Origin: Eledone cirrhosa
Lineage: Eukaryota
Assembly: GCA_964016885.1 (NCBI GenBank)
Contig: OZ024742.1
Coordinates: forward strand, 137,206,001-137,270,000
Length of the DNA: 64,000 nt
Direction of reading: 5' to 3'
Position numbers and translations under genes: made by a program. A model generated the notes under the pieces. That model did not search any database. It was given only the letters and a program-made list of their open reading frames with translations, and had not been told where the DNA came from. Positions 22,623 through 59,665 of this stretch are shown piece after piece (position 1 is the stretch's first letter; each line of letters opens with the position of its first letter).

Positions 22623-22673
<51 letters not shown>

Positions 22674-22677
<4 letters not shown>

Positions 22678-23130
22678 AAATAGTAGTAAGAAAAAAGATT
22701 CTTTCAGTGGAAAATGTTGAAGAGATTATTATCAGTGAGATATCAAAACATTGATTATTTACAATACCGGTTTCAGCATTAAATACATTGCCAATTGAGG
22801 ATATACAGAATGTTTTTAAGTTGCATCATTTTTCTTCCGCATTTTATTTTCATTGTTTTCATTATTATTATTATCACTATTTGTGATAATAATAATAATG
22901 AATAATAGTAATACACTGGGTAGTTGCTGGCCTTGTGCCTAACGTAGAAACAATTATTATCACTATTTGTACAAATATGCAACTTAACAATATTCTACAT
23001 ATCCGCAATTGACAATGAATTTAATGCTGAAACCGTTATTGTAAATAAATTAATATTTTGATATCTCACTGAAAAGAATCTCTTCAACATTTTCTACTGA
23101 AATAATATTTTTCCTTTCTACTATTTGTTT
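22674..23130. repeat. Foldback element (~150-bp inverted arms) in (TA)n, with a SINE A 3' fragment in the spacer
   Basis: 22674-22826 is a diverged reverse complement of 22977-23130; SINE tail 22905-22958 with TSD ATTATTATCACTATTTGT. Confidence 0.8.
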
Positions 23131-23177
23131 TTATATATATCAACTCGTGTGTTACTTTTCTACATTCGATATATATA

Positions 23178-23934: not shown

Positions 23935-26100
23935 GAAGGGAGCCCCCTGAGATTGCTTGGCTCTTGCACGGATGTCTTTGGCTGTTTTTCGCGACAATGC
24001 CCTCGCCATATTGTCCGTGAGGCGCAGCAGAAGCACCGTTCAGACTGGGGTGCATTTTATGTCCCTCTCGCTCTACTTTTCTTTCGTTGATTGATTCTTT
24101 TTTTCATTTTCTTCTTTTCCTTCCCTTTAATAGAGTGTTTTCTTAATAAACGTTTTTTTTTTACTATAGAATAACTTTATAATAAAAAAACCCCACTACT
24201 TATACAGTCGGGTATAATCTGATTAAATTAACTAACAGTAAATTTTAGTCACACATATAGGTTACCTAATCTATTCTCATAAACATCCTATTGTTGAACA
24301 CCAACCACTTTACAATGATTTATATTTACATATTTATTCTTCTATACACGAGGTTTTCAGTCGTGGTGGAGTCTATAATTCATTGATGAATTTATAATAC
24401 GGCGGTTACGATGTTGTCCTCCCCACACTTTCCAAATCATTGAACATATTAATACTCATTTGCAAATAATTATTTTCCTTCCCGTATAATTATTTCTAGA
24501 TCAGGTTTAAATATGTCCTGCGTCGAATATTCTAACACGAACTTAACATTTTATTTTCGTTTACGAAGATGCTGTCTTTAAATGGCATATTAATTAATTA
24601 TTTAATTCGATTTAGCATACTCTGCTAAGAACCGACTGAACTACCACATTGTATTTTAAAATATTTTACGTTTTGATGTAGTTCGATTTGGCATCTTTCG
24701 TTTTCAATGATTAGAAAGGATAGGTTTTAACATAAGACATCAAAGTAGATTTAATAAAATTCTTCAGAGAAATAAAATGAATATTATTTCCATGAATACC
24801 ATTTCAAAGCGAGTGACTTTACTAATACAACAGTGCGACAAGTATAACAGCAGAGTCAGTGAGGTCATTTTAGTTCTAAAATTTGTTCGTGGCTTTTTTT
24901 AAAGATATGAACAATTTATAATATCATTTCGCTTCATATAAAACACCGAGAATACTCTTTTGAGACCACAAATAATCAGTTTCGTTTCCGGCGGTGTTTA
25001 TTTCATTATAACTTTACCGATATCAAAAGAGTGTGCACCGTCACAAAACACAGCACATCATACAACATGCTTTTACTATCATCAACATTTTGCTTTAAAA
25101 TAAAGATAGCTTTTACAGCAGCAAGGCTAGTAATGTCCTGCTTCAGATTTAATCAAATATTTTCTCTCTGCCGTGGACATGAAAGGAATTTAGAAATCAG
25201 TGGTGTGCACCATACAGTCAGAGATGAGCAAGTGAAAACCGCATTTCAGTCACATTATTGTTGAAACGTTGTCTTAAATTTTGAACAGAATGAAATCCTT
25301 TTATAGTGCACAATATCACAATCAGTGTTCTTTACTACAATAGACTGTTTTATGCCTTCAACATTAATACATGTATAGATAGATTAAACACACATACACA
25401 CATAAGTATATGTATGCGTGCTTGCACGTGTGTGTGTATTTGTGTGTGAGTGTGTGAGCATGTGTGCATATTTCCATTGCTAATTGACATTAGATTAAAC
25501 ACAATAGGTATTCATATAGCGCCTGGTGAGGGTAGAAACTAATAGTTATTGTCGCGCCTAAAAAGAGCTTACAGATGGACTCCGACTTCATCAATTTTTC
25601 AATATTAATGAAGATAAAAGTACGTGCTGTATTTGTTTATGTTTTACGTATAGTAATTTAATACAGTAGTCTAGAAACCTTCCGGAATTTCTGAAGTTCC
25701 ATGGCCTAAGGAAGTTTTTATTTTACATCTGAGATATTTTACATGTATATGTATAAATATTTCATGAGTAGTTGAATGAGTTTTCCTTTCAATGAGGACG
25801 TTTTCAATCCAGTTTCACTACTCAGCAGTTTGGGCAGATTTCTACTAAGTCATTTGAATGAAACTGGTAGCATGTAACTGCACCGAGTTGAATGTATTTG
25901 TAAATTAGACATAGAGATTTGTAGCTCAATGCGACTCTGTGTATTTCTTGATTAGGTTGGAAGCCTGATCGGATTTAGATGTCACGATATCACATACAGA
26001 AAGGTTGAGAGAGGGGAGGGTGAGAGGGAGCGAGTAAAAGAGAAAAATGATGGAATTAAAATAAAGAGCCGTATACATACTGAACCACGTGGTAGGCAAA

Positions 26101-26685
26101 CAATTATTTCTACATTTGGCACAAGGCCAGCAATTACTGGTGCATTACTGGTGCTTCATTTTATCGACCCCGTAAGGGTGAAAGGAAAAGTTAACCTCGG
26201 CGGAATTTGAACTCAGACCGTAAAGGGCTGTAACTATATGCTGCAACTCATGGCGCCCAACCCTCTACCGATACTGCCAATCCACCAGGCAAATAATTGT
26301 TTCTGCTTTTGGCACAAGGCCAGCAATTAACCAGTGCATTACTGGTACTTTATTTTATCGATCCCGTAAGGATGAAAAGTAAAGTTAACCTAGGCAGGAT
26401 TTGAACTCAGACTTTAAAGGGAGGTAACTATGCTGGAAAGCATGACGTCCTACTCTCTATCGATACTGACAGGAAAATAATGATTTCTTGTAAAGACACA
26501 AGGCCAGTAAATTGTGGGGAGGGGAAAGTCGTTAAAATCGATCCCAGTACGTTACCGGTGCTTTATTTTATCGACCCCGTAAGGATGAGAAGCAAAGTTA
26601 ACCTCGGCGGGATTTGAACTCAGACATTAAAGGGAGGTAACTATGCTGGAAAGCATGACGTCCGACTCTCTACCGATATTGACAG
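26101..26685 (-). mobile_element. Three head-to-tail SINE family A copies
   Basis: Copies at ~26101-26287, 26292-26470 and 26477-26683; the third carries the longer GGGGAGGGGAAAGTCG subfamily insert. Confidence 0.88.
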
Positions 26686-27139
26686 GCAAAGAGAGGACAA
26701 AAGCTAGAGAGAGCACGTGTACACAAACTCACACGTTAAGTAATTGTGGTTTCCTGAGATCATGCACAATATTACTATCTTTTCATCGTTATAGGAAAAC
26801 ATACATGAAAACCATCATTTAATTCTAAAATGTTTTCCCTTCCTTGTTCTCAAACGTCTGTTACCTTTTCATCATTTGTGCAATCTCCGGGTTAATAAGT
26901 CAATTTGACATGTTTAGATGTGTATATACTTGATCTGATTATATACAAACTTATATATTTTAGAGCAAAGGGAATTGCATATTGTCATATTCATGATTTC
27001 TCCAATGGTTTGAAAACAAAATACGAACAAACGAATTTAATAATAGATCACTTGTTAGGTTAGCTGAAAATGCTCGCCGCTTCTTTCATACTACCCCATA
27101 ATTCCCCCCCCCCCTCTCTCTCTCTCTTACTCTCTTTCC

Positions 27140-27170
<31 letters not shown>

Positions 27171-27179
27171 AATACATAC

Positions 27180-27220
<41 letters not shown>

Positions 27221-27259
27221 CATACATATACATATATATATATATACATATATATATAC

Positions 27260-27291
<32 letters not shown>

Positions 27292-27292
27292 C

Positions 27293-27324
<32 letters not shown>

Positions 27325-27713
27325 CTGTATATATGCATATATATATATATATATATAGGTGTGTATGAATGGGTGATAGTCTGTGTATATATGAGTGCAA
27401 GCTAGCGATGCACTCTAAATTATATTGAAATTTTGCTGGCACATCGTATTTACACCTGAAACAAAAATATCTTTAAATTATTCAATATTATTCGCTTACG
27501 CACAGCCCTCTACAAATGCCAACTACTAATACAGGCTAAATAAATGGTCAAACTTCTTCAAATGTTCCTCTGGCAAGTAGTTCCGACTAAACTACTGCGA
27601 TATTTTACACTTGGTAGATTCTCGCCTAGTGCTCGTTGGTCGTTTGCAGGTATGCATATATATATATACACATATATATATACATATATATATAGATAGA
27701 TAGATATATGTAC

Positions 27714-27895
<182 letters not shown>

Positions 27896-27913
27896 ATATT
27901 TATATATATATGT

Positions 27914-27986
<73 letters not shown>

Positions 27987-29345: not shown

Positions 29346-31082
29346 TCATTTGGAAAATAATTACTGATTATTGAAAAGATTTTAGGATATTGGATCATTG
29401 TTTAGAAAGTACCTACAACATTATTGAAAGTTATGATACTAAATATGCGTGAAAGTAGAAAAAGCAAATCCTCTTGTTGTTTATCACTGATGTGATGCTG
29501 GTCAAACAGTTCATGTCGTCATTTATTCAAATATTTTATGGATGACTTTATTTTTCCATGTGCAGTTTCTAAAATCGGTAAGATATGAATTTAGGAAGAA
29601 ATCGATATTTATATTAAGCCTGTATGTACATAATAATTGCTTTGCAAAGCTCTGATTCTAGATTTGATATCACGTTCGGCTCCTTGAATACATTGTAGTC
29701 TCTTAGACCTGCATCAAACAAAGTCCTTCAAAATAAACCCAGATAGACATACAATTTGTAGTAAACCATCGATTTAATAGTATATGCTATAGGTCGCTAG
29801 GCTTAATGCAGCAATTAATTTAATAAGACAATGCTGCCTTTTAGCAACTTTAGTGCAGTCCACAGATGTGCAAGGTTTCAGAGTATTTTTCCTCTCTGTG
29901 TAAATTTATTTACTCCATTCTTCAACCAGATATGAAAACCCTATGATAAATAATAGATTTTGCTCATATTTAATTTACTATCAAGCTGGGGGAAAAAATG
30001 CCCAGCAACTTTGTTAAGATTCTGACTTACGCCGATAATATTTGTTCATGGAGCTCATACATTTTGCTCGTTCATATATATTTCAGAGCTCTTGTTATGT
30101 CTCTAAAACCATGTCGTGCCAATTCACTGTCAGGAATATCTCCCACATCCTCTGAATAATGTACACGAGATCGTTTAGTACTCTATATTGAGGGAGAACT
30201 TACTTTGAAAGGTTTTATTCTATATTTGTGTAAGATTGCATGCATTAGAAAACTGATTAATTTAGAAACGTAACAGATCATTACTTGTTGAAGCAAGTTA
30301 CATTTTCGAAGAAGTTGGGAAAATAATAGACAACGGAATATACAACAGAGGATAGTGATATAAAATGTTAAATATACAAATATGTTTTGGAATGATTTGG
30401 TTTAAAGACAGATATACCTCTTATTAGTAGAAAGCATGCTTTCGAATTTGTGGTCGTTGCATGACAATGATACCTATTTATATTTATTTGTTTTCATTGA
30501 TAACATAGACTTCTGACTCTTGGTAAAAAAAATACGATGAATGTGTCAACAAGAGAACTAATGTTACTAATAGAAATAAAACAAAAAACACAACAGCAAA
30601 TAAAGAAACGTTTCTTTTATTATGCGCTTTGAAATAATAAAAACGAGAAGCACAAACATAAAATACCCTTGAAAAAAAAATATTCAGCCTTATGCATTGA
30701 AATGTATCTTCGAAGTAGGAAAATTTATCAAACTGTTTATTGTGACTTATTGAATACGGGCATGCTTTCTGGGTGGGCTATATGATGTATATGGTGGTGC
30801 CTTAGTGCTTCTAGAAGAACAATGCCAGTGTATCTATTAACCAGTATCATTTGAACAAGAAATACACACTAAAATATCACACAGTAAAAGAAACTTAATA
30901 AAATTGTTTTAGCTAAAATATATTCATTACATTTCAACAACTTAAAACTAAGATTTAAATGAGTCAAAAGAGATAAGAAAACATAACGGAGGGTTTGACT
31001 AACATTCTAGGCTATGACGTAGATGGGAAATAAAATAAGTGTTACCCAAGTTGACAATATATGATAGAATGTGCCACTACCA

Positions 31083-31611
31083 TAATTGTTTCTACTTTAG
31101 GCACAAGGGCAGCAATTACTGGTACTTTATTTTATAGACCCCGTAAGGATGAAAGGCAAAGTTGACCTCGGCGGGATTTGAACTCAGAATGGAAAGGGCC
31201 GTAACTCTATGCGTCAAAGCATGACGTCCGACCCTCTACCGATACGGCCAATCCAATGCCTCTACCATAATAATTGTTTCTACTTTTGGCACAAGGCCAG
31301 CAATTACCCAGTGCATTACTGGTACTTTATTTTATCGACCCCGTAAGGATGAAAGGCAAAGTTAACCCCGGCGGGATTTGAACTCAGAATGGCAATGGTT
31401 TCTAATATAGGCACACGGCCATTAATTTTTTGGGGAGGGGAAAGTCGATTAAATCGGCCCCAGTGTGTGAGTGGTACTTTATTTTATCGACGCCGTGGGG
31501 ATGAAAGGCAAAGTTAACCTCGGCGGGATTTCAACTCGGATCATAAAGGGCCGTAACTCTATGCTGCAAAGCATGGTATTCGATTCTCTACCGATACTGC
31601 CAATCCACCGC
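31083..31611 (-). mobile_element. Three stacked SINE family A copies
   Basis: Copies ~31083-31260, 31268-31390 and 31396-31611; flank TGTGCCACTACCATAAT repeated at 31070 and 31615, with a variant at 31257. Confidence 0.88.
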
Positions 31612-31776
31612 CCTTGTGCCACTACCATAATAATGATGGCGGTTCATTCTGTCGCCATGAATATTAAAAGAAGTGAAGTTATTAATGTATTACCGTGCGG
31701 GATCTACATGTCTGTTGGTTCTATCGCAGCTGTTAAAAAACAATGCCAAAAGAGTGTAAAATTATTATTATTATTA

Positions 31777-32224
31777 CAGGCCCATAACTATGCTCAACAC
31801 AGAGTTTAAAGTGTTGGCCAAGGTGTTAGCAAAGAGATTGGCGCTTGTCGTCGAGGATTTGGTTGGGGAGACGCAAACTTGTGCAATCCCAGCCAGGTCC
31901 ATACACGACAATCTCCTCCTCATGCGATACATCATAGAGAGGGTAGGGTGTAAACTTGGCTTCGGTGAGGCAATGATCAATCAAAAGCATTCAATAGGGT
32001 CGACCATCGGTATCTGGAGTTTGTCCTCAAAGCAGCTGGCTTCGGCCCTGTTTTCAGAAGCTGGATCGCTACAATGCACAGCTGCACAGGCTCGGTGATC
32101 AAGGTTTATGGCCACCTCTCGGAACCATTTCAGCTCTCCCTATCGGTCCGTCTAGGGTGCCCTCTCTCTTCCCTTCTGTACGTATTGACTCTTGAGCCTT
32201 TACTGCGGAAGCTAATAAATGAAA
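31777..32224 (+). mobile_element. Tx1 RT fragment after (ATT)n, internally deleted
   Basis: RPITMLNTEFKVLAKVLAKRL...SIHDNLLLMRYI; ends GCTAATAAATGAAA like the 3' end of copy 4. Confidence 0.85.
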
Positions 32225-32228
32225 AAAG

Positions 32229-32610
32229 GGCGGTGGATTGGCAGTATCGGTAGAGAGTTGGACGCCATGCTTTCCAGCATAGTTACGTCCCTTTACGATC
32301 TGTGTTCAAATCCCGCCGAGGGTGACTTTGCCTATCATCCTTACGGGGTCGATAAAATAAAGTACCAGTAATACACTGGGTAATTTCTGGCCTTGTCCCT
32401 AAAGTAGAAACAATTATATTATTATTATTATAAAGGCGTTGGATTGGCGGTATCAGTAGCGGGTTGGACACCATACTTTCGCGCAAAGAGTTACGTCCCT
32501 TTAAGATCTGAGTTCAAATCCCGCCGAGGTTAACTTTGCCTTTCAGCCTTACGGGATCGATAAAATAAGGTACCAGTAATGAGCCAAAAATAGAAACAAT
32601 TATAATTATT
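32229..32610 (+). mobile_element. Two tandem SINE family A copies with ATT tails
   Basis: GGCGGTGGATTGGCAGTATCGG at 32229 and GGCGTTGGATTGGCGGTATC at 32435; tails ACAATTAT(T). Confidence 0.9.
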
Positions 32611-32625
32611 ATTATTATTATTATT

Positions 32626-35600
32626 GTTCTTTGAGTCTCAGTCATTGATGTTATTTAACTAGATAGTTTGTTGAAATGAATATCAAGCCACTACCTGCAG
32701 CCTCAGATATTCAGGACGTATCGGAGGGTTCTTGCTGTTCCTAGCAAGTATGCCTTTTTAAGTGTTCCAAAAAGCGGGGCTAATTTTCTTTAACCATCCC
32801 TGGAAACTCTTTGAGATAGTACCTAGTGCGCCTATGACAATCGCGACCACGTTGACTTCATGGCAGTTCGAAATCCTTTTTACCTCCCACTTTAAGTCCT
32901 GGTATCGATTAATTTTCTCCCTCTCCTTCTCTTGCACTCTGGTGTCGAATGGGCAGGCCACATCCACAATCAGGCACGATCTTTTTTCCTTCTCCAAAAC
33001 CACCAGGTCAGGTCTATTGTGTTCCAGTTTCTTGTCCGTCTGTATCCTAAAATCCCACAGCACCTTCACCTAATCGTTTTCTATCACCGACTCTGGCTTA
33101 TGCTCATACCACTTCTCAGAATGTGGTAAATTGTTAACTTTGCATAGGTGTTTACACTCGGAATCAATGTGAGCCACAGTCTCCTCTCTCTCTCCACATA
33201 TCTTGCACTGCACAGTGGGCTAGCCTCCTCCTTGTAAATATGGTGTTCAGCCACTTCGTTTTGAGGGCCTGCTCTGGCGCAGCCATTAGCATTCCTTCTG
33301 TAGCCTTTTTAAGGTCTCCTCTTTCCAACCAGTTCCATGTCTGTGGATCTCTGAATTCAGTTTTCTCAAAGAAGGTACTATGAAGGGATTTTTCATGAAG
33401 GTTGCTCTTTCTCCTTGTTGTTATTTCCTCTTTGGACATCCTCTGGTCTATTGTCCTCTCCTTCAGTACAATTCTGAGCATTGGCTCCCTACTATCAGTC
33501 ACGTATTTGTGTAGGTTGTTTTTCTCCATCTGAACACAGTCCTCAATGCTGATAAGACCTCTTCCACCTTCAGATCTCCTTAAGTAGAGTCTATCGACAT
33601 CCTCCTCTTGTGGAACATGGTGTAGATACTCAATAGCCTCCTAGTCTTCCTATCCATTTCTTTTTGTTCAGCAACATTCCATCTCAGAATTCCCGCACTG
33701 TACATAATAATAGACACAACTCGGGAATTTACTGCACTTATGGCATTCCAACTGTTCAGATGTGATTTTAATACGCTCCTTACTCACCAAATGTATTCAG
33801 ATCTTATCAATTCCTTCATTTTTTTCTTCTTGATGTCATCAGCCTCCAGAACACCCAAATACTTGTATCCTTCTTCAGTGTCAATTTCATTTATAATCTC
33901 ACCTGTTGGTACCTGGATTCCGTTGCTTCTGCTCAATTTACCCCTCTTCATCACAAGGACTCCACACTTAATAATACCAAATTGCATACATATATCATTG
34001 CTGAAAATACGGATAGTGTCAAAAAGCATATCCAACTCCTTCTCACTCTTCCCGAAGAGCTTAAGATCGTCCATGAAGAGGAGGTGATTGATGGTAAGCT
34101 CTCCCTTTCTCAACTTATATCCTGCTCTCACTTTTCGCAGTATAATGGTCAGGGGCATCAGGGCAAGGACAAATAAAAAGATACGTCTCTTGATCTTCAC
34201 GCCTCCCAATGATTCTCCAGCTGATTTTAACTCTGTTTTCCAGGACTTCATAATTTTGCTCAACAACTGTCTGATGTTATCTGCCACCTTGAAGATCTCT
34301 AGGCTTTTGGTGATCAAAGAATGAGGCACCATGTCAAATGCCTTTTTTGTAGTCTATCCATCCCATGGCAAGACCAGTGTGTCTCCTCTTGCAATTCCTC
34401 ATTACCATCTTATCAATAAGTAACTGGTCATTTGTACCACGGGACTTCTTTCGGCCTCCTTTCTGTTCGTCCTGTAACAAGTTGTTTGTGTGGAAGTGAT
34501 GGTATATTTCCGCAGACACAATGCTTGTCAACAGTTCCCACATTACGGATAGACATGTGTTAGGTCTATAGTTGGTAACATCATTACCCTTTATTCGGTC
34601 TTTCATTACCAGAACTGTGGTACCTTTTGTCAACCACTCTGGTACCCCACCTGACATCAAGCATTCATTGAACATGGTTGTCAGTTTCGGGTGGAGGAAT
34701 GTTATATGTTTTATCCAATACCCCTGCACACCATCTGGGCCTGGTGATTTCTAGTTGGTTAGTCTTTTGGCCTGCCCCTTAAGAGTTTCAACTGTGATAC
34801 ACAAATCAGTTTGTTGGTGTGCCTGTTCACTAATCTCCTTTTGTACTATCTCAATCCACACTGCCTGGTCATTATGTTTAACATCCTGCTCCCATATTCC
34901 TCTCCAGAATGTCTTAGTCTGTTCCGTCCTAGGGATCAAGTCGTTGCCTCTTTCTTTCCCTTCAAGCTGTCCAAACAGTATCTTCTGCTTGTTGTCAAAT
35001 ATGCCGTTCTGTCTATACTGACTGACTCTGATCTCGTATCGCCTAAGTGTTGCACTCTTTGCTACAATGCATTGCTTCAGTTCCTCTATGATAATATTTA
35101 CCTTTTTCCTCCTAGTTTTGTACTTTATTTCCAGTCTATTTTTAGTGTCTATGTCTTTTAGTGTCCCATTCAGTAGGGACCCAAGCTTTCCAATGTCATT
35201 TCTCATTTCTCTGATTTGACCATTCAGTCGTTTCTTCCACCAAGGCTCTGATCTTTCTTGTTCGTTGTTTCCTCTCGATGTTATGCCAAGTAATTTCCTC
35301 ACCGCATTTGCTGTTGCTTTGAGGATATTGTTGCACTGGTGAAGGCTCCTCGCCTCAAGATATGGGATGACTTTGTTTACCTTAGCTGTTGTTTCTTTTA
35401 ACTTTTTCCTTTCTACAAATCTTAGGTTCATGGTTTTCCCACTATCATCGTTCAATTCATCTACCACTAAGTTTAGGATATCAACCAAATATTGTCCTAG
35501 CCCGCCAGCATTCATCTCCGCAATGGCCGAATCTTTGTTCGAGGTATTATTTATTTCAGCATTCAGATCACTGTCTGCTTCGGATAGTTCCTCCGTTCTC

Positions 35601-35890
35601 TCAACCTCTTAATTTCCCACTGGCTCGTTTGCCTGGCATACTCCACCCTCCATTTCCAACCTAATATCTCTGCTTAGTTCCTCCAGTTCCAGCTCGCTTA
35701 TCCACCCATTAGTTCTTATTACCCGAGCCTGCCTGACCAATTTTTGTTCATCTAATTTAAATAGACCAATCTTGTTCCAGATGTTATGCATCCGTTTCCT
35801 ATAGCCTCTTTCCTTGGGGTTACTCGTCGGGTAACGTTGCATAACAGCTCTATTCATTTCTTTCGTCCAGTTAGTTCTGGTCCCTTTCCT
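32626..35890 (-). mobile_element. R4/Dong-clade non-LTR retrotransposon (RT + CCHC + restriction-like endonuclease), degraded
   Basis: MNRAVMQ..SNPKERGYRKRM N-terminus, PWWKKRL, GYWIK, DQLLIDK, WIDYKK, HLLFMDDLKLF, YKYLGV, KVLWDFRIQTD...RPDLVV...IVDVACPFD...EKINRYQDL; 3' end runs into (TAA)n. Confidence 0.9.
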
Positions 35891-35891
35891 T

Positions 35892-38800
35892 CGGCCAAAA
35901 TGTTATCTCTGTGGGTCGAAGGGTCACCTCAGGTCCTTTTCCCCGCAGAAGACAGCGAAGAAGGCCCCTCTCCTTCCAATACCTGATCCGCTGCTACCAA
36001 GAGCAGGGCAGGGAACAAACGCAGAAGCCCCTTCCACGGTGAGTAGGAGGGCAACGTCCGCAGCACCCGTACCAAGGCCACGGATAACTAAAGCAGCATC
36101 ATCAGTGGCGGCAACACCAATAGCTACATTTGAAGTAGCTACACCAGCAACAAAATTGCCGAAGCGGGCTCCACTACCACCACCAACACCGTGGAGCACA
36201 TACCCCTCCCAGACGCCACAGAATCCGACATGGAGCTTGAAGCGGGAGTGAAGTGGCAAACGGTTTTCCACATAAAACAAAAAAAAAAACCCTTAGATTC
36301 ACCTTCCAAAAGCGAAGGCATAAAAAGAGGGGTAAAGGCAGCAAGGAAACTTGCAGCAACACCACCACCATCACCACCACAAATACCACTGACAACAACA
36401 ACCACACCACCACCAGCATCACCCAAAACACCAACAACGAAAACACAACAAGACACACACACCAAACAGCAACAAAATCACCCCTTGCCCAAAAAGTACA
36501 CAGCCATAAACATGGTAAAAAAAGAACTCATACAATATATAATGCAGCACACAAACATCACAGAAAAAAACTACTACAGCCCACCAATACGAAGAACTCT
36601 CCCGACAAACATAAGCATCATCGAAATCTCAATATAACAGTACAAACTTTTAAAACAAAAATTCCACAACGCATTGGAATCTTCAGAAGGTCGGTTACCA
36701 AGAGGATATACACTGACATCCTCTTGGAAACACGCATAACCAGCGAAAGGGACGGTTCTACTGTCCCTTCACCACATGATCAAGGTAATTGACCCTTTCT
36801 CACTTGCCCCGTTTCTAATCCAACATGGCCTTACTCAGAATAGGCAGTATAAATGTACGTGGCCTGGTGTCATCTTGGAAGCAGGGTCACCTGCTCAACG
36901 ACCACAGGTCACTAAACGTAGATGTGGTGGCCATCAGTGAAACCAGAATCTCCGAAACACAAGTCTTCGCACCGATCTTCGGCGGCTACGATGTATACGC
37001 ATCTCCCAGCCGTCCAGGGTCGGGGGAAGGAGTTGCCGTCCTTTTTCGGAGAGGCTTAGATCTCGCGATACGGGCCATCTTCCTAGACCCAGAAGGCAAG
37101 TCGGTGGTGCTGGACGTGACCGGCTGCGAAGGCAATGATTTCAGGCTAATAGCCGTCTATGCCCCAGCAGGGGCAGGACGGCCAGATTTCAACAGACGTC
37201 TAGAGACCTTTCATGGAACGTCCCGCTCTTTAGTTCCAGTGGAACGGTATCTTAGATGCACGCTGGGATCGTGTGCGGCTAGTGGATAGGGGAGGAGGGT
37301 GCAAGAGCCTCACCAACCTGCTCAGACGTTTTGAACTGTCTAACAGGTATAGACTGGATCACTCGAATGTGCCAATGTGGACATGGACAAACCGCATCGG
37401 GTCATCCAGATCGTATCTCGGTAGGGTATTCTGCAGAGAACTAGATAAGGCTAGTATAAGTTCTCCACAATTTAAAATAGTCGACTACACATACCACACA
37501 TTTGTGATCTGTGAGATCGACATAGACAGACTTCATAGACAAGGGCCTGGTTACTGGAAGCTGAACGCGTTTTTCCCTGCGCGCAAAGCCTACAGAGACC
37601 GGTTTAGCATATTAGTTAAGCAGGCGTTGACGGGAGCGGACGTCAACATCAGGTGGTGGTTCGCCCTGAAAAGGGCAATTAAAGTAGAGTCGATTAGGTT
37701 TAGCAAAGGAGTAGTGATAGAAGAAAATAGAGTAGAGGGAGAGCTAGTCAGAAAGCTAGAAGAGGCGTTTAGGATAGGCATCGCAACCGACGTGCTTGCG
37801 GCGAGATTGGCACTCGACCAATTCTTCAACGCAAAACACGAAGGCTGCGTTATCAGAGTTAGAGCGCGTGCTCTGAAACACGAGGGGACAAAAGCCGTCC
37901 AATGGGCCCGGGTGGCAGAGGCGCGACATGACAACAAAGCCACAATTCGGTCTTTGTCTAACCAAAACGGGTGCGTGATGCTCGAACCCGAGCGGATGTG
38001 TGAAGCTTTTCAGCAGCACTTTGCTGAACTGTTCGGGAGCGGCGGCGGCCAGGATAGGGGCATGGACTTCAGTGTATACCTCGACAGACTGCCTCGGCTC
38101 TCGACAACCGCAGCACAGAGTTGCGAAAAGCCAATAACAGCCGGTGAAATAAGGGAAGCGATGGCTAACTGCACAAGGGGTAAATGCCAGGTTTGGATGA
38201 TCTCACCTACGAGTTTTATGCATTTATGCCAGACTTGTTCGGTGACCTCTTGGCAGACGTCTACTGCAACTGGCAGCAGAACGGGAGCATTCCCAGTTTT
38301 GTGAGCCGGGGAGCAGTGGCGCTGCTGAGAAAAGACCCGAACAAGGGGGATGTTATCGATAATTTCAGGCCCATAACCTTGCTAAACGCAGAGTTCAAGA
38401 TTTTGGCCAAGGTGTCGTCGTCAAGGGTCTGGTGGGAGAGGCGCAGACATGCGCCATTCCGGACAGATCCATACACGACAAACTCCACCTCATGCGTTAC
38501 ATCATAGAGAGGGTGGTTAAGGAACCTGGCACGGGTGGGGCCCTGATCAACTTGGATCAATCCAAATCATTCGATAGGGTCGACCACCGGTACCTGGCGG
38601 CGGTCCTCGAGGCAGCCGGTTTCGGGCCCGTTTTTAGGGGTTGGATCACAGCAATGTACAGCGACATCTGCTCAGTTGTGAGGGTGAACGGTCACCTGTC
38701 GCAGCCGTTCAGCATCATGCGCTCAGTCCACCAGGGTTGTCCCCTCTCGTCCCTCTTGTACGTATTGGCTCTCGAACCATTACTGCACAAACTGGGGGCA

Positions 38801-40540
38801 ATGATGGGCGTCCCACGCGAACTAGGATGCAGGAAATCCGAGTCGGCTTACGCTGACGACGTCACCGTGGTGGTGTCGAGCACCAGACACGTCCATATGC
38901 TCGGCACCGCTCTCAAGGAATACGAAGCGGTGACAGGAGCAAAGATAAACTAGGAAAAGTCGGTGGGCTTGCAGCTCGTCACCTGGAGAGGCAAATCGAT
39001 GCCGTCCGACAGCATCGTGGGGCGTTGGACGGACAGACAGGTTAAATTGCTCGGGGTCTGGTTCGTACCGGACCTCCAGATGGAGAAAAGCTGGAACGAG
39101 ATGAGGAGCAGGGTGGCCTCTCTCACCCAGAAATGGGCCGAGAGGAAGCTGTACCTGAAAGGCCGGGCGGAGGTGGCGAATGAGTACATCGCATCCATCA
39201 TCTGCTACCGCCTCACCGTCGTCCCTTGCTCCAGCCCAACTCTCACCAAAATGGAGCGCCACCTCTTCCGCTTTTTGTGGAAGGGACGCGCTCCCATGGT
39301 CAGACGATCCATCTGCTGGCAACACCCGTTGCGTGGGGGAATTGGCATGCCATGGCTGATGATGCGCAAACATGCGCTGAGGCTGCGACATCTCTGGTGC
39401 ATCCTTGATGTTGAACAGGTGTGGTCGCCGTTCGCCAGGCACGTTTTCCCACAGCTCGTCTCCTTGACAGAGCTGCAGTCCTGGGTCAGAAAAATCCCGA
39501 GGGATAGCGCTTGGAAACTGGAATGTCTCCAGGCGCTCACTGCCCTCTGCCAGCTGGGCACCAGTATCAGTAGAACATCCACCTCGGCGTTCTATAGAGG
39601 ATTAGTGGAGGGGAAGAGTGACGACATTCTCGGAGAGATCCTGGGCGTCGAAGAAGATCAGCTCTTTGCTCTATTCCGGAGAACTTTCAGCCCGGGGCCT
39701 ATGGATAACTACCAAAATCCCTGAACTGGCAGTGCTACCGGGGAGCGCTGCCGGTTCGAGATAACTCTACAGGCACGGAAGTGCCGTCAGCCGAGCCTGT
39801 TCGAGATGCGCGCAGAGCGACGAAACCGTCGTTCACGCAATCCTTCAGTGCCCGAGCATTGCTGACTTGTGGAGCTATGTCGAACAGTTGCTGTCGCGTG
39901 TAGGACTGATCCGGTTGTCGACTGAGTCCATTGTGCAGATGGTCTCGCCGTCTTCCTTCGAGGAGGAATGGCATGTGGTTTTCATCTGCCTGGTGGCCAT
40001 GGCGAAAGATATTGTGGTGGACAAGGTTAAAAGGCTTAAAGACAGACACTTTCCACTTCGGCGAATCCTTAATTAACTTTTTCAGGTTTCACTTGAAGAG
40101 GAAAATCAGGGTGGAGAGGCAAGTGCTGCTTTCTAGCAAGTTTGTTGAAAGGTGGGTTAATGTAGCGAGAATGGTCCGAGTGAACGGGACCACTCTGAAT
40201 ATACGTCTGTAGTTTGAAAGATGGAAAAATTGAGAGAGGGCGCTTGCCCTGGTGGTCAGGGTGGCCGTGGTCTTTTGTGAGGTTTTCGCCACAAGTAACT
40301 CTCGGAGGTTTCCCCCCTATTGGGGAATTTTTCATTGTTTCAATTTTCATTTTCTTGTTTATATATATATGTTTCTATGTCTTTTTCTTTTTCCTTTCTT
40401 ATATAAATAATAAAAATTGTTACACGCACAAAAGTCCACATCGTACCGTCCTGTACCGCACTGTGCCGTCTGTAATGTTTTTCTTGATGTCAGCCCTTGT
40501 GGCCAATAAAGAAATCATTATTATTATTATTATTATTATT
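35892..40540 (+). mobile_element. Tx1 copy 2, 5'-truncated at the ORF1 zinc knuckle, (ATT)n tail
   Basis: Starts RPKCYLCGSKGHLRSF; ORF2 36825-40212 with APE/RT (AYADD) motifs and frameshifts; AATAAAGAAATC(ATT)8. Confidence 0.92.
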
Positions 40541-43500
40541 GGCGTCCTACGTAGTAAATCCTATCATCGTGAGCTCCGCAAAGGTTTGTTATTTTCAGTT
40601 GTTTAAAATTGCTATTCATGGAAAAGTTTTATTGTTAACTGTATATAAGTGCACATACATGGTTTTCCGAAAAGAACACTCAAAACGATTAGGGACTTGA
40701 GCCCAAAATTTAAACTTTAATAATCATAAATAAAAACTTTCTTTGAAAAAAACATGGATGACTCACAGCCACACGAAGCTGACAGCCTTCCTCACAAACT
40801 AACACCTCACACCGACACCACCATTGTAAATATTACTACGTTTGCCAACACGAAAAATATAAGCAGTAGCAATATTTTAAATTTGTCTCAGGCAGACATT
40901 CATTTCCCGCCATTACCAATGACTGCAGGTGTTAAAGCCGCCACCACCACCACCACCAGCAGAAACAAAAGAAAAAAATAAATTAACTCATGATATCGAA
41001 ATGAATTCAACCAAAATAAACTCTTCCACACCGAACACCACTGACGCCACCACCACCACAAATGAAACTAAAATTAGCAATAACAAAAATAACGATAACA
41101 ACAACAGCAACAATGAAATTAATAAAACTACCCTGAGTTTTGACAGAGTAGCAAAAACGTGCGAAGCGATACAGGTAACTCAGGAGGAATTAGAAGAGGC
41201 CAAAAAAAATGGTAAAGAAAGATGGGTACAGGGTCAGCCTCCCCTCACCACCACCTAATAAAATGGAGCATCGGCGCCTATGCACCGTGTCTTATCATAC
41301 AATATATAAAATCGCGCCGAGTGGAACGGGCATCAGAGTCCCAAATCCAAAATCTTTGGGACATGTGTGGGCAAAATAAATCCACATACGACGTGAGCAG
41401 AAGTATGGAACCGGGGACGTGTTCTTTGAAACACCACAGGAGGCTAAAGAACACTCCATGGCTCCATAAAGAAGTGACAACTTCACACTCGTCCCAAGCT
41501 ATTGTGGCCAGAGACTCGTAAAGATCAGGGTCACCCACGTTCCACCGGCCATCGAATTCCCTGGCTAATAGCTGCCGTCCTCACCGGCATCGAAGCCAAT
41601 ACCAAGATAATAGAAATAGCGAAAGAAAAGCAGGAGAACTGGTCCGGATCTGGGATGGAGCTCCTGATCCAAGCGGACCAAAAAAGAATTGAGGAGATCA
41701 CAGAGGTAATAGACCTCACTGACGGCAGCCACCTCACCGTAATTGTCGAGGGCAGAAGGCCTAGGTGTGTCGTTTGTGGTGAAGGAACCCACCTAAGGGC
41801 TTTCTGCCCTCAGGCTAAAAGGTTGAGGCCACCTCTCCTACCCACCCCAGTGACTCAACCATCAACACCACCAGCAGCAGAAATGGCAGCAACAACTGTA
41901 GCAGCAACAACAGAAACAACTGTAATAGCAACAACCCCAGCAACAGTAGCAAAACCAACACCACCACCACCCAAAGCGCCAGAACTAGCACCAGCGCCTA
42001 CACCATCCACCACGCCACAACCAAAACTAACGCCTGTGGAGGATTTTCCACTCCCCGGCCTATCACAACTGGAGACAGATTGTGACGGCGAGGAGTGGGA
42101 AACGCTATCAGGAAAAAAGAAAATAAGAAACCAAAAAAGAAAAAATTCTCTTCCTTCCCCCACCAAAAACAAAATACAGAGGGAAACAAATAAACTATCA
42201 AACAAAAAAGTTAGGAGAGACATGCCACCTTACACACCAGCATCACCAACCCTATCACCCCAAACACCAACACCATCACCATCATTAACCTCAACACCAC
42301 CATCACCAACACCACAAAAGTCACCAAAATGCGAAACAGAAACAAACCCACAACAAACGCAAACAAAACAAAACAACCAAAACGATACACACTACACAGC
42401 ATTAAATTTGAACAACAACCAATTATTACACTACATCCAACACAACACCAGCATCACAGAAAAAGACTACACAACAACCCAAAAGATCACACCACCTCCA
42501 CACATACAAATCACTCGCATCACACAGAAAACGTACATGACACTAAAACAAAAAATTCCCCAAAGACATCGGAGACTTCCGACAAGCACTCTCCAGGAGG
42601 ATTTATAAGGACATCCTTCCTGAGGAGGCCACAAGCAGTTAAAAGGATGGACACACCATCCTTCCTCTACGAGAAGTAAGGTAAGTGGTCTTTCCCATCT
42701 TTTCCACTCCATTTCAACATGACCTCACTCAGAATAGGCAACATAAATGCGCGTGGCTTGGGGTCGTCATGGAAGCAGGGTCACCTGCTCAACGACCTCA
42801 GGTCACTAAACATAGATGTATAGGCCATCTAAGTCGATCTACGGCGGCTACGATGTGTACGCACCTCCCAGCCGTCCGGGATCGGGGGGAGGAGTTGCTG
42901 TGCTTTTTCGGAGACGTTTGGATCTTGCCATACGGGCCATCTTCCTGGACTCAGAAGGTAAGTTGGTGGTGCTGGACGTGACCAGCGGAGACGGGCAAGC
43001 TTTCAGGTTAGTGGACGTCTATGTCCCGACAGGAGCAGGGCGGCCTGATTTCTTCCGGCGTCTGGAGACCTTTCTTGGAACGTACCGCTCTTTAGTGTTA
43101 GTGGGCGACTGGAACGGGATCTTAGATGCACGCTGGGACTGTGTCGGATTAGTGGATAGGGGAGGAGGGTGCAAGAGTCTCACCAACCTACTCAGGCGTT
43201 TTGAACTGTCTGACAGGTACCGATTGGATTTCCCGAATGTGCCAATGTGGACTTGGACAAATCGCATAGGGTCATCAAGATCATATCTAGATAGAGTATT
43301 TTGTAGGGAAATAGATAGGTCTAGCATAGGCTTTCCACAATTCAAGATAGTCAGCTACACGGACCACAAATTCCTGATTTGTGTGCTTGAATTAGATAGG
43401 GCTACTGGAAGCTAAACGGGTCCTTACCAGCGCGCAAGGCCTAGAGAGACCGGATTAGCGAACTGCGTTGTCAGAGCTAGGGTGCGTCCTCTCAGACACG

Positions 43501-46033
43501 AGGGGACGAAAGCCGTTCAATGGGCCCGAGTGGCGGAGGCGCGTCGTGGCAACAAAGCCACGATCCGGTCTTTGGTGGACCACGACGGGCGCATGCCACT
43601 CGATCCCGGGCAAATGTGTGAAGCTTTTCAGCGACACTTCGCACAGCTGTTCGGGGGCAGCGGCGGGCCGGATCGAGGGATGGACTTTAGTGTCTACCTC
43701 GACGGACTGCCGCGGCTCTCGGCCACTGAGGCGGAGTGTTGCGAAAAGCCGCACAAGTGGTAAATCGCTTATGTTTGGATGGGCTGCCCTATGAACTTTA
43801 CGTACAGATGCCAGACTTGTTCGGAGGCCTCTTGTCGGACGTCTACTGCAACTGGCAACAGAACGGGAGAATACCCAGCTCTGTGAGCCGAGGAGCTGTG
43901 GCGCTGCTTAGAAAGGATCCGAAAAAAGGGGTTACATAGATAATTTCAGCCCCATAACTCTGCTAAACACTGAGTTCAAGATTTTGGCCAAGGTGCTAGC
44001 AAAGAGGTTGGCGCTTGTCGTTGGTGGTCTGGTTGGAGAGGCGCAGACGTGCACCATTTCTGACAGATCCATCCACAACAACCTCCACCTCATGCGATAC
44101 ATCGTAGAGAGGGTAGCTAGGGAACCTGGCACGGGTGTGTCCTTGATCAATTTAGATCAGTCTAAAGCTTACGATAGGGTCGACCATCGTTACCTAGCGG
44201 CAGTCCTGAGAGCGGCTGGCTTTGGGCCCGTCTTCAGAGGCTGGATCGCTGCCATGCACAGCGACATCTGCTCTGTGGTGAGAGTGAACGGTCACATTTC
44301 GGAACAGTTCAACATCATGCGCTCGGTCCGCCAAGGATGTCCCCTCTCATCCCTCTTGTACGTATTGACTCTCGAGCCATTATTGCACAAACTGGAGACG
44401 TTGAGGGGCGTCCCGCGCGAACTAGGATGCGGAAGATCCGTGTCAGCATATGCCGACGATGTCACCGTAGTGGTGTCGAACGCCAAACACATCGAGGCGA
44501 TCGGCACTACACTAAGAGAATACGAAGCGGTGACAGGAGCAATGATCAACCAGGAAAAGTCAGTGGGCCTGCAGCTCGGCACCTGGAGAGGCAGGTCCAT
44601 GCCGTCCAACATCGTCGTCGGACGCTGGATGGACGGACCGGTTAAATTGCTAGGGGTCTGGTTCGGTCCGCACCTCCAGACGGACAAAAACTGGGACGAG
44701 GTGACGAGCAGGGTGGTTTCTCTCACCCAGAAATGAACCGAGAGGAAGTTATCCCTGAAAGGTCGAGCGGAGGTGGCTAACGCGTACATCGCGTCCGTCA
44801 TCTACTACCGCCTGACCGTTGTACCTTGTCCTAAGCCCCGCCTGACTGCGCTGGAGCGTTTGCTCTTTCGCTTTTTGTGGAAGGGACGCGCTCCGATGAT
44901 CAGGCTATCATTCTGCTGTCAACACCCGCTACGTGGTAGGCTGGGCAAGCCGTGGTTGATGATGCGGAGATGCGCTCACCTCTTCCTCGACGGTGATCAG
45001 GTGTGGTCGCCGTTTGCTAGACACGTCTTTCCCCAGCTCGTCTCCTTGACAGAGCTGCAGTCCTGGGTCAAGCGAAGACCGAGAGGGAGCGCTTGGAGAC
45101 TGGAATGTCTTCTGGCGCTCCCAGCCCTCGACCAATCGGGCAATGTGATCGGTGGAAACTCCACTTTGCCGTTCTGTAGAGGATTAGTGGAGGGGAAGAG
45201 CGACGACGTACTTGGAGAAACTCTAGGCGTCGGCGAAAATCAACTAGCCAATCTCTTCGGAAGGAATTTCGGGCCGGGGCCTATGGACAACTTCCAGAAA
45301 TCCTTGGCCTGGCAATGCTACTGAGGAGTTTTGCCAGTTCGGGATAAACTCTAAAGGCATGGAGGTGCCATCAGCCGGGCATGTCCGGGATCCGCGCAGG
45401 GCGTCGAAACCGTCCTGCGCGCATTCAGCTAGTGTCCGAGCATTGCCGACTTGTGGGACTATCTCGAACACCTGCTGTCACGTGTGGGACGGATCCAGCT
45501 ATCATCTGAGTCCATAGTGAGGATTTCCCCGCCCTCTTCCTTTAGCCGGTGGCCATGGTGAAAGAGATAGTATGGTGGACACGTTTGAAAGGGCTGAAGA
45601 CGACCACTTACCTCTTCGGTGATGCCCTGATTAACTTTTTCAAATTTCATTTGAAAAGGTAAATCAGGGTAGAGAGGGAAGTGCTCTCTTCCCAGCATTT
45701 TGTTGAAAGATGGGTGAGAGAAGCAACAATGGTCCGAGTGAATGGGCCTACTCTGAGTATGTGTCTGTAAATTAAAGGTGGAAAACTGGGAGAGGGCACT
45801 TGCCCTGGTGGTCAGGGTCACTGTGGCCTTTTAATGGGCTTTCTCCACAAATGTCCCTCGGAAGTCTCCTCCCTATTGGGGAATTTTTCATTGTTATTTT
45901 TTTATTACATCCTCTGTTTTTTTTTACACGCAGAAATGCCCATTTGTACCGTCCTGTATTGTCCTGTACTGTCCTTAATGTCTACTTTATGTTAACCCTT
46001 GTGGTTAATAAAGAAAGCATTATCATTATTATT
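40541..46033 (+). mobile_element. Tx1 copy 3, apparently full length, directly after the (ATT)n tail of copy 2
   Basis: 5'UTR from 40541; ORF1 ~40754-42684 with intact CVVCGEGTHLRAFC knuckle; ORF2 42719-45770 nearly identical to copy 1 but with deletions and stops. Confidence 0.92.
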
Positions 46034-47013
46034 AGCTGGCACCTGGAATGTTGCCAACCACTCACTGCCCTCTACCAAGCGGGCAATGCGATCAGTGGAA
46101 CTTCCACTCTCGAGTTCTATAGAGGATTAGTGGTGGGCAAGTGCGATGACGCACTCGGAGAAGCTTTGGGCCTCGACGAAGTCGAACTGACCCGTCTGTA
46201 CCGGAGGACTTTTGAGCCGGGGACGATGGACAATTTCCAGAAATCCCTCGCTTGGCAGTGTAACCGGGGGGTCACTGCCGGTTCGGGATAAACTCTACAG
46301 GCACGGAAGTGCTGTCAGACGGACCTGCCCAAGATGCGCACAGAACGACGAAACCGTTCTGCACGCACTTGTCCAATGTCCGTGCATTACTGACTTGTGG
46401 AGTTATGTCGAACAGCTACTGTCGCGTGTAGAACGATTCCGGCTATCGGCCGAGTCCATAGTGAGATCGATTCACCGCCTTCCTTAGGTCAGGAAGAGCA
46501 GGAAATGTTCCTCTATCTGGTGGCAGTTGCGAAAGAGATAATATGGTGGACCAGGTTGAAAGGACTAAAGACACTTTTCTCTTCGGCCAATCCCTCATCA
46601 ACTTCTTCAAGTTTCACCTGGAAAGGAAGGTGAGGGTGGAGAGAGAAGTGCTGCCCCCCAGTACATTTGCTAAAGGGTGGGTGAATCTGGCGAGAATGGC
46701 TCGTGTGAATGGGCCTACTCTGACCATGCGCCTATAGGCTAGCTAACTTGAGGAGAGGGGTGCGCTCCCTGGGTGCCCTAGAAGCGCAGGGTGGTTCAGG
46801 ATTGGTGGGGTACTCAAATCACCCCAGGGTCGTCCACCCCCTATCGGGGAATTTATTTTGTTATATTTATGAATAGTTTATTTTATATTTTTATATTTTC
46901 ATTGTTAATTAGTCTTGCCATTGTGCACTTTTACTCGATCTTATTGTAAACCCTCACTGTCCCTGTCTTTGTATTGTCCCCTACATGTCGGCCCTGGTGG
47001 CTAATAAATGAAA

Positions 47014-47045
<32 letters not shown>

Positions 47046-47046
47046 T
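46034..47046 (+). mobile_element. Tx1 copy 4, 5'-truncated 3' fragment of a distinct subfamily
   Basis: LPVRDKLYRHG...CPRC...ETVLHALVQC; ORF ends 46737; different 3'UTR; AATAAATGAAATC(ATT)n. Confidence 0.9.
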
Positions 47047-47676
47047 ACTTGATTTCTCAGTATTTGATGTTATTCAACCGGAATAATTGCCCTAATGAAT
47101 ATTAAGCTACTACCCGCTGGCTGAGATATTCAGAACATATCGGGGAGTTCTTGCTGTTCGCAACAAGCATACCCTTTGAAGTATTTCAAAAAAGGGGGCT
47201 GGACTAATGTTCTTTAACCAGCCTTGAAAACTCTTTGAGATAATACCTACTGCTTCTATGACAATCGGGACGACCTTAATCTCATGACAGTCCCAAATCC
47301 TTTTTAATTCCCACTTTAAATCCTGGTATCGGTTAATTTTTTCTCTTTCCTTTTCTTGCATTCTAGTGTCAATGAGGCAGGCTACATCTACAATCAGTCA
47401 CGATCTGTTTTTCTAGCCAAATACCACCAGGTCAGGCCTATTGCATTCTAATTTCTTGTCTGTCTGTAATCTGAAATCCCATAGCACCTTCTCTCGATCG
47501 ATTTCTATCAGCGACTCTGGCTTATACTCATACCACTTCTCAGAATGTAGTAAATTATTTAGTTTGCACACATGCCAGTGAATCACCTTTCCTATTATAT
47601 CGTGCCTCCATCCGTTATGGTGAGTCTGGGCTAGGTGTTTACACTCGGATACGATGTGAGCCTCAGTTTCCTCACT
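47047..47676 (-). mobile_element. R4/Dong 3' fragment (endonuclease domain), tail-to-tail with Tx1 copy 4
   Basis: EETEAHIVSECKHLA..WRHD..KVLWDFRLQTD..RPDLVV; 3'UTR homologous to 32626-32720. Confidence 0.9.
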
Positions 47677-47779
47677 ATTATAATTATGGTAATGGTGCTG
47701 GATTGGCACTATCGTTAGAATAGCGTACAAATTGTCTTGCAGTATTTAGTTACAGCACTTTACATTCTAATTATGTTTG

Positions 47780-55943: not shown

Positions 55944-56671
55944 ATTTGCATATCCGCTATGTTAGAGCGACAGCTTATTTTTATTTTTAATTTTCGGCAA
56001 AGCCAGCTGTAAAAATGCTCAGTATGCTAATTAGGCTAATCGACCGATGTATTTTTTAGATAATACTATATATTCTCAAGAGGTTTAGGATGTGAGAGAG
56101 AAAAGAGATGCATAAACTTGAAAAAGGACAATTACCCAGAACAAATATCATTGTCCGTTGTTTCTGTCTGTCACCGCTAGAATAAAAGGAAGACACTGGT
56201 CGTCTAAAATACATATCGTAATGAAGCTGTTAGCTTGCAAACAAATCGAATATGATTATTACTCGGACACCAGTGATAAAGTAGTAAGCCTCAAAATATA
56301 TGTGACGCGTCACGTCACAATAATGGGGAGGTAAGCCATGCATAACAAATTTATACGATGGCACAGATACAAATTTAAAAAAATGGTGAAGCCAGGTATA
56401 CTCTACCAGGGTGTTTTCGTAGAGAAAACGAAGAGAGAATCGGAAACAATAAATAAATAAATCGAACTAGAGTAATCAAAGTGAGAAAGTTCAACTTACA
56501 ATTTAAATGTAGGAACTATAAATAGTTGTGGAACGAAGCTTATCGAATAGATTGGATACAGCTTCGGCCGTTTCTTCACTCACTCATTAATTTAATTAAA
56601 TCCGAATTATTAAAATTCGAACCCAACAATGATAGAGAGATAGAGAGATAGAGAGATAGAGAGATAGATGG

Positions 56672-56704
<33 letters not shown>

Positions 56705-56719
56705 TGAAAAGTGAGATAG

Positions 56720-57677: not shown

Positions 57678-57736
57678 ATAGATAGATGGATAGATAGACA
57701 GAGAGAGAGGGGGGAGTTAATTTTTTAAAATTCATT

Positions 57737-59571: not shown

Positions 59572-59620
<49 letters not shown>

Positions 59621-59665
59621 CGAATGTTTATCCGTATGTATATATGTATATACATATATATATAT

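Follow-up and report, generated by a model that had tools for sequence, protein, structure and literature searches.

Retrotransposons of the Tx1 clade are known from microsatellites, namely Kibi from (TC)n, Koshi from (TTC)n and crocodilian families from (TTCC)n or (TTTC)n (PMC4494074; PMC3812793), and a Tx1 family has been termed target-specific if more than 20% of its genome-wide copies are flanked by one repeat (PMC4494074). R4/Dong elements are long interspersed elements (LINEs) with a restriction-like endonuclease (RLE) and, unlike R2, without N-terminal zinc fingers; their target is (TAA)n in insects, molluscs and cnidarians (PMC7998251), and their polarity on this target can be taken from the primer design in PMC3774820. 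Common use of one target is described for Keno (Tx1 clade, with an apurinic/apyrimidinic-type endonuclease, APE) and Utopia (RLE), which evolved the same U2 small nuclear RNA (snRNA) site in parallel (PMC4640811), for SART and TRAS, which enter the telomeric repeats of Bombyx in opposite orientation (PMC10088271), and for crocodilian Tx1 copies and the short interspersed element (SINE) family SINEU, which stack at a common target (PMC4494074). These and the following statements on published work refer to the parts of the respective papers that were covered. Here we describe a locus of Eledone cirrhosa at which Tx1-type LINEs, R4/Dong-type LINEs and tRNA-type SINEs lie side by side at tracts of the trinucleotide repeat (ATT)n. 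The locus is part of a stretch of 64,000 nucleotides (contig OZ024742.1, positions 137,206,001 to 137,270,000), which is called the window in the following and supplies all coordinates.

The nest reaches from 31761 to 47687 and comprises four Tx1-type copies and two SINEs on the plus strand and two Dong/R4-type LINEs on the minus strand. It probably arose by one-by-one arrivals in a formerly single, short (ATT)n microsatellite, with targeting of opposite strands by the two LINE types and regeneration of the target by the insertions. The boundaries of its parts were set by self-comparison, lists of open reading frames (ORFs), the raw sequence, probing with full-length homologues and joint-by-joint printing, and led to the following arrangement, in which two Tx1-type copies outside the nest serve as controls:

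7452-13551, plus strand: Tx1-0, lone full-length control outside the nest (element 7470-13522), ATT tracts on both sides
31071-31634, minus strand: three tandem tRNA-type SINEs (two subfamilies, one copy 5'-truncated) at a separate site beside the nest
31761-31775, plus strand: (ATT)5, left end of the nest
31776-32224, plus strand: Tx1-1, fragment of the reverse transcriptase (RT), 5'-truncated, with internal deletion and no ATT tail
32228-32597, plus strand: two tandem SINEs with an ATT tract in between (32413-32429)
32598-32625, plus strand: ATT tract including (ATT)7, common to the SINE tail and the Dong-1 tail
32626-35892, minus strand: Dong-1, near full-length R4/Dong-type LINE (RT, CCHC motif, RLE)
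35893-40516, plus strand: Tx1-2, begins at the ORF1 zinc knuckle; ORF2 with APE, RT and zinc finger, disrupted
40517-40540, plus strand: (ATT)8
40541-46018, plus strand: Tx1-3, full-length in outline (5' untranslated region (UTR), ORF1 with CX2CX4HX4C knuckle, ORF2)
46019-46033, plus strand: imperfect ATT tract
46034-47015, plus strand: Tx1-4, from a more distant subfamily; 5'-truncated, retaining zf-RVT and 3' UTR
47016-47045, plus strand: (ATT)10, common to the Tx1-4 tail and the Dong-2 tail
47046-47676, minus strand: Dong-2, 5'-truncated (endonuclease and 3' UTR)
47677-47687, plus strand: degenerate remains of an ATT tract that close the nest on the right
56631-57700, minus strand: Tx1-5, 5'-truncated control outside the nest (about 56723-57676), TATC-type repeats on both sides

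Seven of the nine joints of the nest carry an ATT tract, five of them with at least four perfect units and two in imperfect form. Read from the left, the flank is followed by (ATT)5 and the Tx1-1 fragment, which meets the first SINE without a tract; ATT tracts lie between the two SINEs and, as (ATT)7, between the second SINE and Dong-1. Dong-1 and Tx1-2 are joined head to head, again without a tract, and the remaining joints are occupied by (ATT)8 between Tx1-2 and Tx1-3, ATTATCATTATTATT between Tx1-3 and Tx1-4, (ATT)10 between Tx1-4 and Dong-2, and ATTATAATTAT between Dong-2 and the right flank. A decayed SINE head was found just past the right end (about 47691-47770). The elements agree in order, strand and position with the original prediction, and at both Dong 3' junctions (2/2) the element is tail to tail with an ATT-tailed element, as had been claimed. 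The predicted nest of 16.6 kb (31070-47680) is real, and its extent had to be reduced. The left-hand SINEs on the minus strand (31082-31615) lie 126 bp from the first ATT tract, their tails consist of one or two ATT units, and the motif ATTATGGTAG(T/A)GGCA occurs three times, at both ends and between the copies. They occupy a separate, repeatedly used insertion site, marked by a target duplication of its own in three copies, and were rejected as members, so that the ATT nest proper measures about 15.9 kb.

Assignment of the plus-strand LINEs was based on several lines of evidence. ORF2 contains the Pfam domains Exo_endo_phos (APE), RVT_1 and zf-RVT, and one homologue (P0243) aligns along Tx1-0, Tx1-2 and Tx1-3. 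The ORF1 knuckle CX2CX4HX4C is intact in Tx1-3 and has lost one cysteine in Tx1-0 and Tx1-2; a Pfam search of ORF1 gave no match. In the PDB search the RT reached 1e-72 to L1 ORF2p versus 6e-29 to R2, a search with just the APE piece produced nothing but a spurious match to titin, and the Atlas searches returned no clade name for the LINEs. Among the 120 homologues listed, a single one is named "Transposon TX1 uncharacterized 149 kDa protein", and the named homologues of the RT derive from cuttlefish and Octopus bimaculoides. With these domains, a knuckle ORF1, affinity to the L1 group and the one Tx1-named match, the elements probably belong to the Tx1 type.

The minus-strand LINEs have one ORF with RT, CCHC motif and RLE, the latter matching solved R2 proteins in the PDB with an E value of 2e-4. 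Residues 51 to 1158 of a homologue (P0121) align along Dong-1, which contains stops and frameshifts and is without the 5' UTR and about 45 N-terminal codons. All 44 long homologues possess both the CCHC motif and the PD..D..K endonuclease motif, and an N-terminal C2H2 pattern was found in none of the 44. No named Dong was present among the 120 homologues listed, nor in the Atlas. Judged by architecture, target and motifs of R4 type, the elements probably belong to the R4/Dong type. Placement of Dong among APE elements in PMC3812793 conflicts with PMC4640811 and with the restriction-like match found here. The claim that two LINE types with different endonucleases meet at this locus was supported, by Pfam for the APE and by the match to solved R2 proteins for the RLE.

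Five Tx1 copies with a common C-terminal segment are 72-91% identical over 650-690 nt and the two Dong copies are 80% identical, which marks them as separate insertions; tandem duplication was therefore rejected as the origin of the nest. All copies long enough to be judged are disrupted by stops or frameshifts, and Tx1-3 carries internal deletions and stops. The last 14 nt of Tx1-1 are identical to those of Tx1-4; at 32195-32230, Tx1-1 passes from the middle of the RT to this terminus at a short common GCT, so that considerably more than 1 kb has been deleted internally. Between Tx1-0 and Tx1-3 (7470-9850 versus 40541-42720) ORF2 is about 90% identical, the 5' UTR and ORF1 barely align (blastn), and ORF1 of Tx1-0 is closer to that of Tx1-2 (64% over 674 nt). 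This mismatch looks like an exchange of 5' ends between subfamilies.

Since the elements bring their own tails, tails prove little about targeting, and the 5' junctions were scored instead. Six Tx1 copies of the window could be compared: four begin directly behind at least three ATT units, one behind TATC, and one is fused to Dong. For the ATT-type copies this amounts to four of five, versus a background of 0.17% of strand positions directly behind at least three ATT units (binomial about 7e-10, calculated post hoc and on related copies). The two copies outside the nest served as controls. Lone Tx1-0 is flanked by ATT tracts on both sides and has no upstream element that could have supplied the tail in front of it, as expected if an insertion regenerates its target. 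Tx1-5 belongs to the same group as the other Tx1 copies, ends in TATC and lies between TATC-type repeats, so that target and tail change together; the pattern points to sister lineages of Tx1 that aim at different microsatellites within the same genome. Both Dong 3' ends read the target as (TAA)n, and in the tracts of the nest the Dong polarity (2/2) is opposite to that of Tx1 (4/4), which bears out the claim that both LINE types use one repeat in opposite polarity. That each insertion regenerates the target had likewise been proposed; the surroundings of Tx1-0 are as this proposal predicts, and the idea itself has precedents.

In target-primed reverse transcription the sense strand of the element has the same reading as the target, while the nick is made in the opposite strand, which serves as primer. 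At this locus the (AAT)n strand would be the one cut by the Tx1 APE, with priming on an (AUU)n RNA tail; for the Dong enzyme the nicked strand would be (ATT)n and the tail used in priming (AAU)n. Nicking of opposite strands would force opposite orientations and lead to tail-to-tail joints even if the elements do not interact. After each insertion a tract would remain on either side of the new element, so that one more target is added; at the two joints without a tract, the latter was probably lost by deletion during 5' joining or later. The SINE would use the Tx1 protein by means of a 3' hairpin, with looser targeting. No host function is needed to explain the nest.

Several observations weigh against a nest built by target regeneration. 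The evidence comes from one locus with just two Dong junctions, whose polarity would occur by chance in one of four cases; two of the nine joints are without a tract (Tx1-1/SINE and Dong-1/Tx1-2); and of the 12 tracts with at least four ATT/TAA units in the window, five of which lie inside the nest, six touch a LINE and six do not. Stops and frameshifts are too few to order the insertions by date. Contigs of four sequencing runs were placed on the window at 85% likeness, and none of the 24 pieces listed out of 372,647 spans an internal joint of the nest. In a toy model with six founder sites carrying 0, 0, 0, 0, 1 and 6 LINEs, a target-multiplying process performs 34-fold better than a Poisson process; the model is weak since sites were defined by the authors and the window was selected for the nest, and local permissiveness fits equally well.

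The best lead of the analysis, absent from the original prediction, is the 3' end common to the SINE and Tx1. The last 26 nt of both align in register and without gap up to the first tail base (with one gap for Tx1-4); in the four printed pairs, 15-18 positions are identical. Scores of the five Tx1 ends against 13 SINE ends were reached by 7, 0, 1, 0 and 0 of 6000 random 26-mers of the window, and among 1000 shuffles by no more than 0-1. The scores of the two Dong 3' ends lay at background level. One SINE subfamily ends with AGAAATC-ATT, exactly like three Tx1 copies. Folding suggested a stem of three to four pairs that closes a loop of five bases; its register was the same in all three Tx1 ends and in one of the two SINE ends folded, the second SINE end forming an overlapping stem instead. 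Over 19 distinct rows 79% of the cells are paired and 11 double changes occur, and neither value was reached by any of 500 shuffles; pair 4-12 is G-C in ten, C-G in four, A-U in two and G-U in one of the rows, depending on the family. Against a functional hairpin speak its lack of stability on its own (z -2.4 to +1.1), the outer pair, which fails in 11 of 19 rows, two of five covariation measures matched by shuffles (pairs with change in 112 of 500, pair types in 137 of 500), and the fact that the structure was read from the same 19 rows, which are related. In sum the SINE is likely a passenger of Tx1 and would be mobilised by the Tx1 protein via the common 3' hairpin. The types are then probably not all unrelated, and the earlier statement that three unrelated types converge on the repeat was not supported: the SINE has its 3' end and the proposed hairpin in common with Tx1, only two of 16 SINE copies, both in the nest, are located at a tract of at least four units, and the left-hand SINEs have their own site.

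Mobilisation of the SINE by another LINE (RTE, CR1 or L2), with convergence of SINE and Tx1 on a design of hairpin plus repeat, is in our estimation rather unlikely. The common stretch is short, the LINE 3' ends compared with the SINE were those of Tx1 and Dong, the SINEs show duplications of unique sequence unlike the Tx1 copies, and the animal partners in a table of SINE/LINE pairs from 2013 are mostly L2, CR1 and RTE, with neither a Tx1 partner nor an octopus SINE (PMC3747384). Convergence would have to account for a gapless register up to the first tail base, the same loop and the same ATT tail as well as the AGAAATC-ATT terminus of one subfamily, and SINEs that are driven by Tx1 and target more loosely are known (SINEU, PMC4494074).

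Families of tRNA-derived SINEs, among them OR/OK, CORE and Meta, are characterised by a tRNA-like head containing A and B boxes and by a core that defines the family. The tRNA-type character of the present SINE is suggested by GTTCAAATCC, which presumably represents a B-box-like motif; ARAGORN found no tRNA in the SINEs. Perfect duplications of 10-19 nt starting with ATTAT at the tail were present in four of 16 copies, from which we infer that the SINE targets more loosely than Tx1 and that a short ATTAT match is enough. SINE tail-to-head joints were found in 42-53 contigs per run, and a second triple-SINE array (26094-26690) resembles the one at 31071-31634 in having a target-like motif repeated between the copies. 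Given the two triple arrays and the frequent tail-to-head joints, this SINE seems to re-use its insertion sites routinely. Loose contig ends at the SINE tail (1,125 and 1,109 records) have an ATT-type consensus of low agreement (0.41-0.44). A 5'-truncated SINE at 22858-22970 has an 18-nt target duplication, and its 5' joint carries a perfect 17-bp inverted repeat in which an ATT tract faces a TAA tract across a loop of 5 nt; it might have formed by fold-back during joining.

It is improbable that Tx1 inserts without sequence targeting, that the ATT tracts are merely its own tails, and that the elements piled up in a permissive region such as silent chromatin or a trap resembling a cluster of PIWI-interacting RNAs. 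In favour of such a region, summed contig depth is 3e4-3e6 over the elements versus about 20 in flank bins; depth is not copy number, and the difference indicates that all families are highly repeated. Moreover, Dong-R4, L1-Tx1 and SINEs are major octopus families, hotspots of transposable elements (TEs) have been reported, and three of the upstream tracts (40517, 46019, 32598) could be tails of the preceding elements. Permissiveness alone leaves the tracts in front of Tx1-0 and Tx1-1 without an upstream element as their source, does not predict TATC on both sides of Tx1-5, and is at odds with elements that abut at a point instead of being broken into each other's bodies.

An assembly artefact or recombination product, in which the assembler or an unequal exchange jumped between loci via ATT tracts, is very unlikely. 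Tracts of 15-30 nt do join high-copy repeats, internal joints are not spanned by the contig pieces listed, and the Tx1-1/SINE and Dong-1/Tx1-2 joints are odd. Opposed to this are the many private stops and indels of the copies, which differ by 9-28%, and the ATT remnants at both outer ends, as would be left by one split site. Contigs from a public sample (X4, X5), possibly the source of the assembly itself, agree to within 0-3 differences with both outer flanks and with the joint between Dong-2 and the right flank, which they cross. Small shares (0.07-0.10) made runs X1-X3 uninformative on the locus; X7, a run of restriction site-associated DNA sequencing, contains the element families in another individual, which holds for the families and not for this locus. 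Joints of Tx1 and Dong tails from other loci were not found among the 15 of 9,491 joints listed, a comparison outside of which the tracts 32588-32636 and 40505-40550 lie. Contig joints from 45072/45084 to 46036 were considered as deletions and rejected, as longer relatives of Tx1-4 continue upstream and match Tx1-3 by homology. In metagenome contigs the Tx1 3'-end pattern had no match and the Dong endonuclease 110 pattern matches, none of them confirmed, and the SINE core had no match in viral or in prokaryote contigs (0 and 0).

At 35865-35925 Dong-1 and Tx1-2 are fused inside both coding regions; homology to Dong extends as far as about 35892, and the first feature of Tx1-2 is the ORF1 knuckle. 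The fusion may be due to deletion, joint priming or mis-assembly. Simultaneous copying of the two elements by different reverse transcriptases, each primed from one strand of a single cut tract, with a head-to-head meeting of the cDNAs, is most improbable: the order tract-Dong(-)-Tx1(+)-tract with two truncated 5' ends and no tract in between would agree with it, as would a contig of another organism that leaves Dong at 35892, but a deletion, be it during 5' joining or afterwards, results in the same arrangement without coincidence, and it is a single case whose joint is spanned by none of the listed contig pieces.

Compared with the systems described above, sequential arrival in a regenerating (ATT)n target requires no new chemistry. 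The Tx1 copies resemble Kibi and Koshi in the APE-RT-zinc finger LINE, the knuckle ORF1, the microsatellite on both sides and the occurrence of related families on different repeats; they differ in the repeat, ATT or, for the sister copy, TATC, and in the cephalopod host. With Dong (PMC7998251; PMC3774820) the minus-strand elements have in common a single ORF, RT, CCHC motif, RLE, no N-terminal zinc finger and the TAA reading. They do not differ in kind, although the tract at this locus additionally serves Tx1 and SINE copies as tail or target. Keno and Utopia likewise bring two endonuclease classes to one target, which there is the same 3' flank in a gene, whereas here it is a trinucleotide repeat with opposite polarity and a target that would multiply. 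SART and TRAS are two LINE families that form arrays in one short repeat in opposite orientation; both are of the R1 clade and use a telomeric repeat, in contrast to the APE and RLE elements in the interstitial microsatellite of E. cirrhosa. In the crocodilian system of Tx1-Mar and SINEU, the SINE is also likely moved by Tx1, often stands in tandem and beside Tx1 copies, and shows weaker targeting, but its link to Tx1 is the common target and snRNA heads, whereas a tRNA-type SINE with a putative common 3' hairpin is found here (PMC4494074). A 3' stem-loop common to SINE and LINE is the feature of the stringent tail pairs (PMC3747384).

A landing site common to two endonuclease classes with opposite polarity was thus seen at the locus as postulated; as a concept it is not new, having direct precedents in Keno/Utopia and SART/TRAS. 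The nest is real and explained by known chemistry, and each idea of the earlier inference has a precedent. In the literature search, which covered neither Repbase, Dfam and the target lists of PMC4494074 (which could include an ATT/AAT family) nor most subscription papers, no ATT-targeting cephalopod Tx1 was found. The same search, subject to the same restrictions, yielded no common target of Tx1 and Dong, no tail pair of a SINE and a Tx1 and no partner LINE for an octopus SINE. The parts covered of two papers on mollusc SINEs (PMC4758252; PMC4824008) name no partner LINE.

Further repeats of the window comprise a minisatellite at 14404-14732 (70-bp units, 4.6 copies) and long inverted-repeat pairs around AT/TG microsatellites at 59544-60053, 22664-23140 and 27140-27983, which resemble miniature inverted-repeat transposable elements (MITEs) or are of fold-back type.

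In Octopus vulgaris about a quarter of the genome consists of LINEs and SINEs, the LINEs active in recent times include Dong-R4 and L1-Tx1 (PMC13282606), and together with SINEs these two represent major octopus repeats (PMC13282606; PMC8967140); the parts of PMC13282606 covered contain nothing on LINE targets or a SINE partner. If ATT tracts are a common, self-multiplying target, cephalopod TE hotspots would arise partly from insertion chemistry, with no selection needed. Sister Tx1 lineages on ATT and TATC would offer a natural series for how an APE switches targets, and the SINE-Tx1 tail pair, if true, would extend the known pairs by one clade; it is testable computationally on public assemblies. 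Only tentatively do we extend this to a genome-wide scheme, in which a Tx1-clade LINE drives the very abundant SINE by recognising its very small 3' hairpin, both of them spread (ATT)n tails over the genome, and Dong uses these tracts from the other strand, giving rise to self-extending nests throughout the genome. If true, the scheme would name the partner of a dominant octopus SINE, provide a case of stringent tail recognition by an L1-group LINE in animals, and mean that one retrotransposon class makes landing sites for another.

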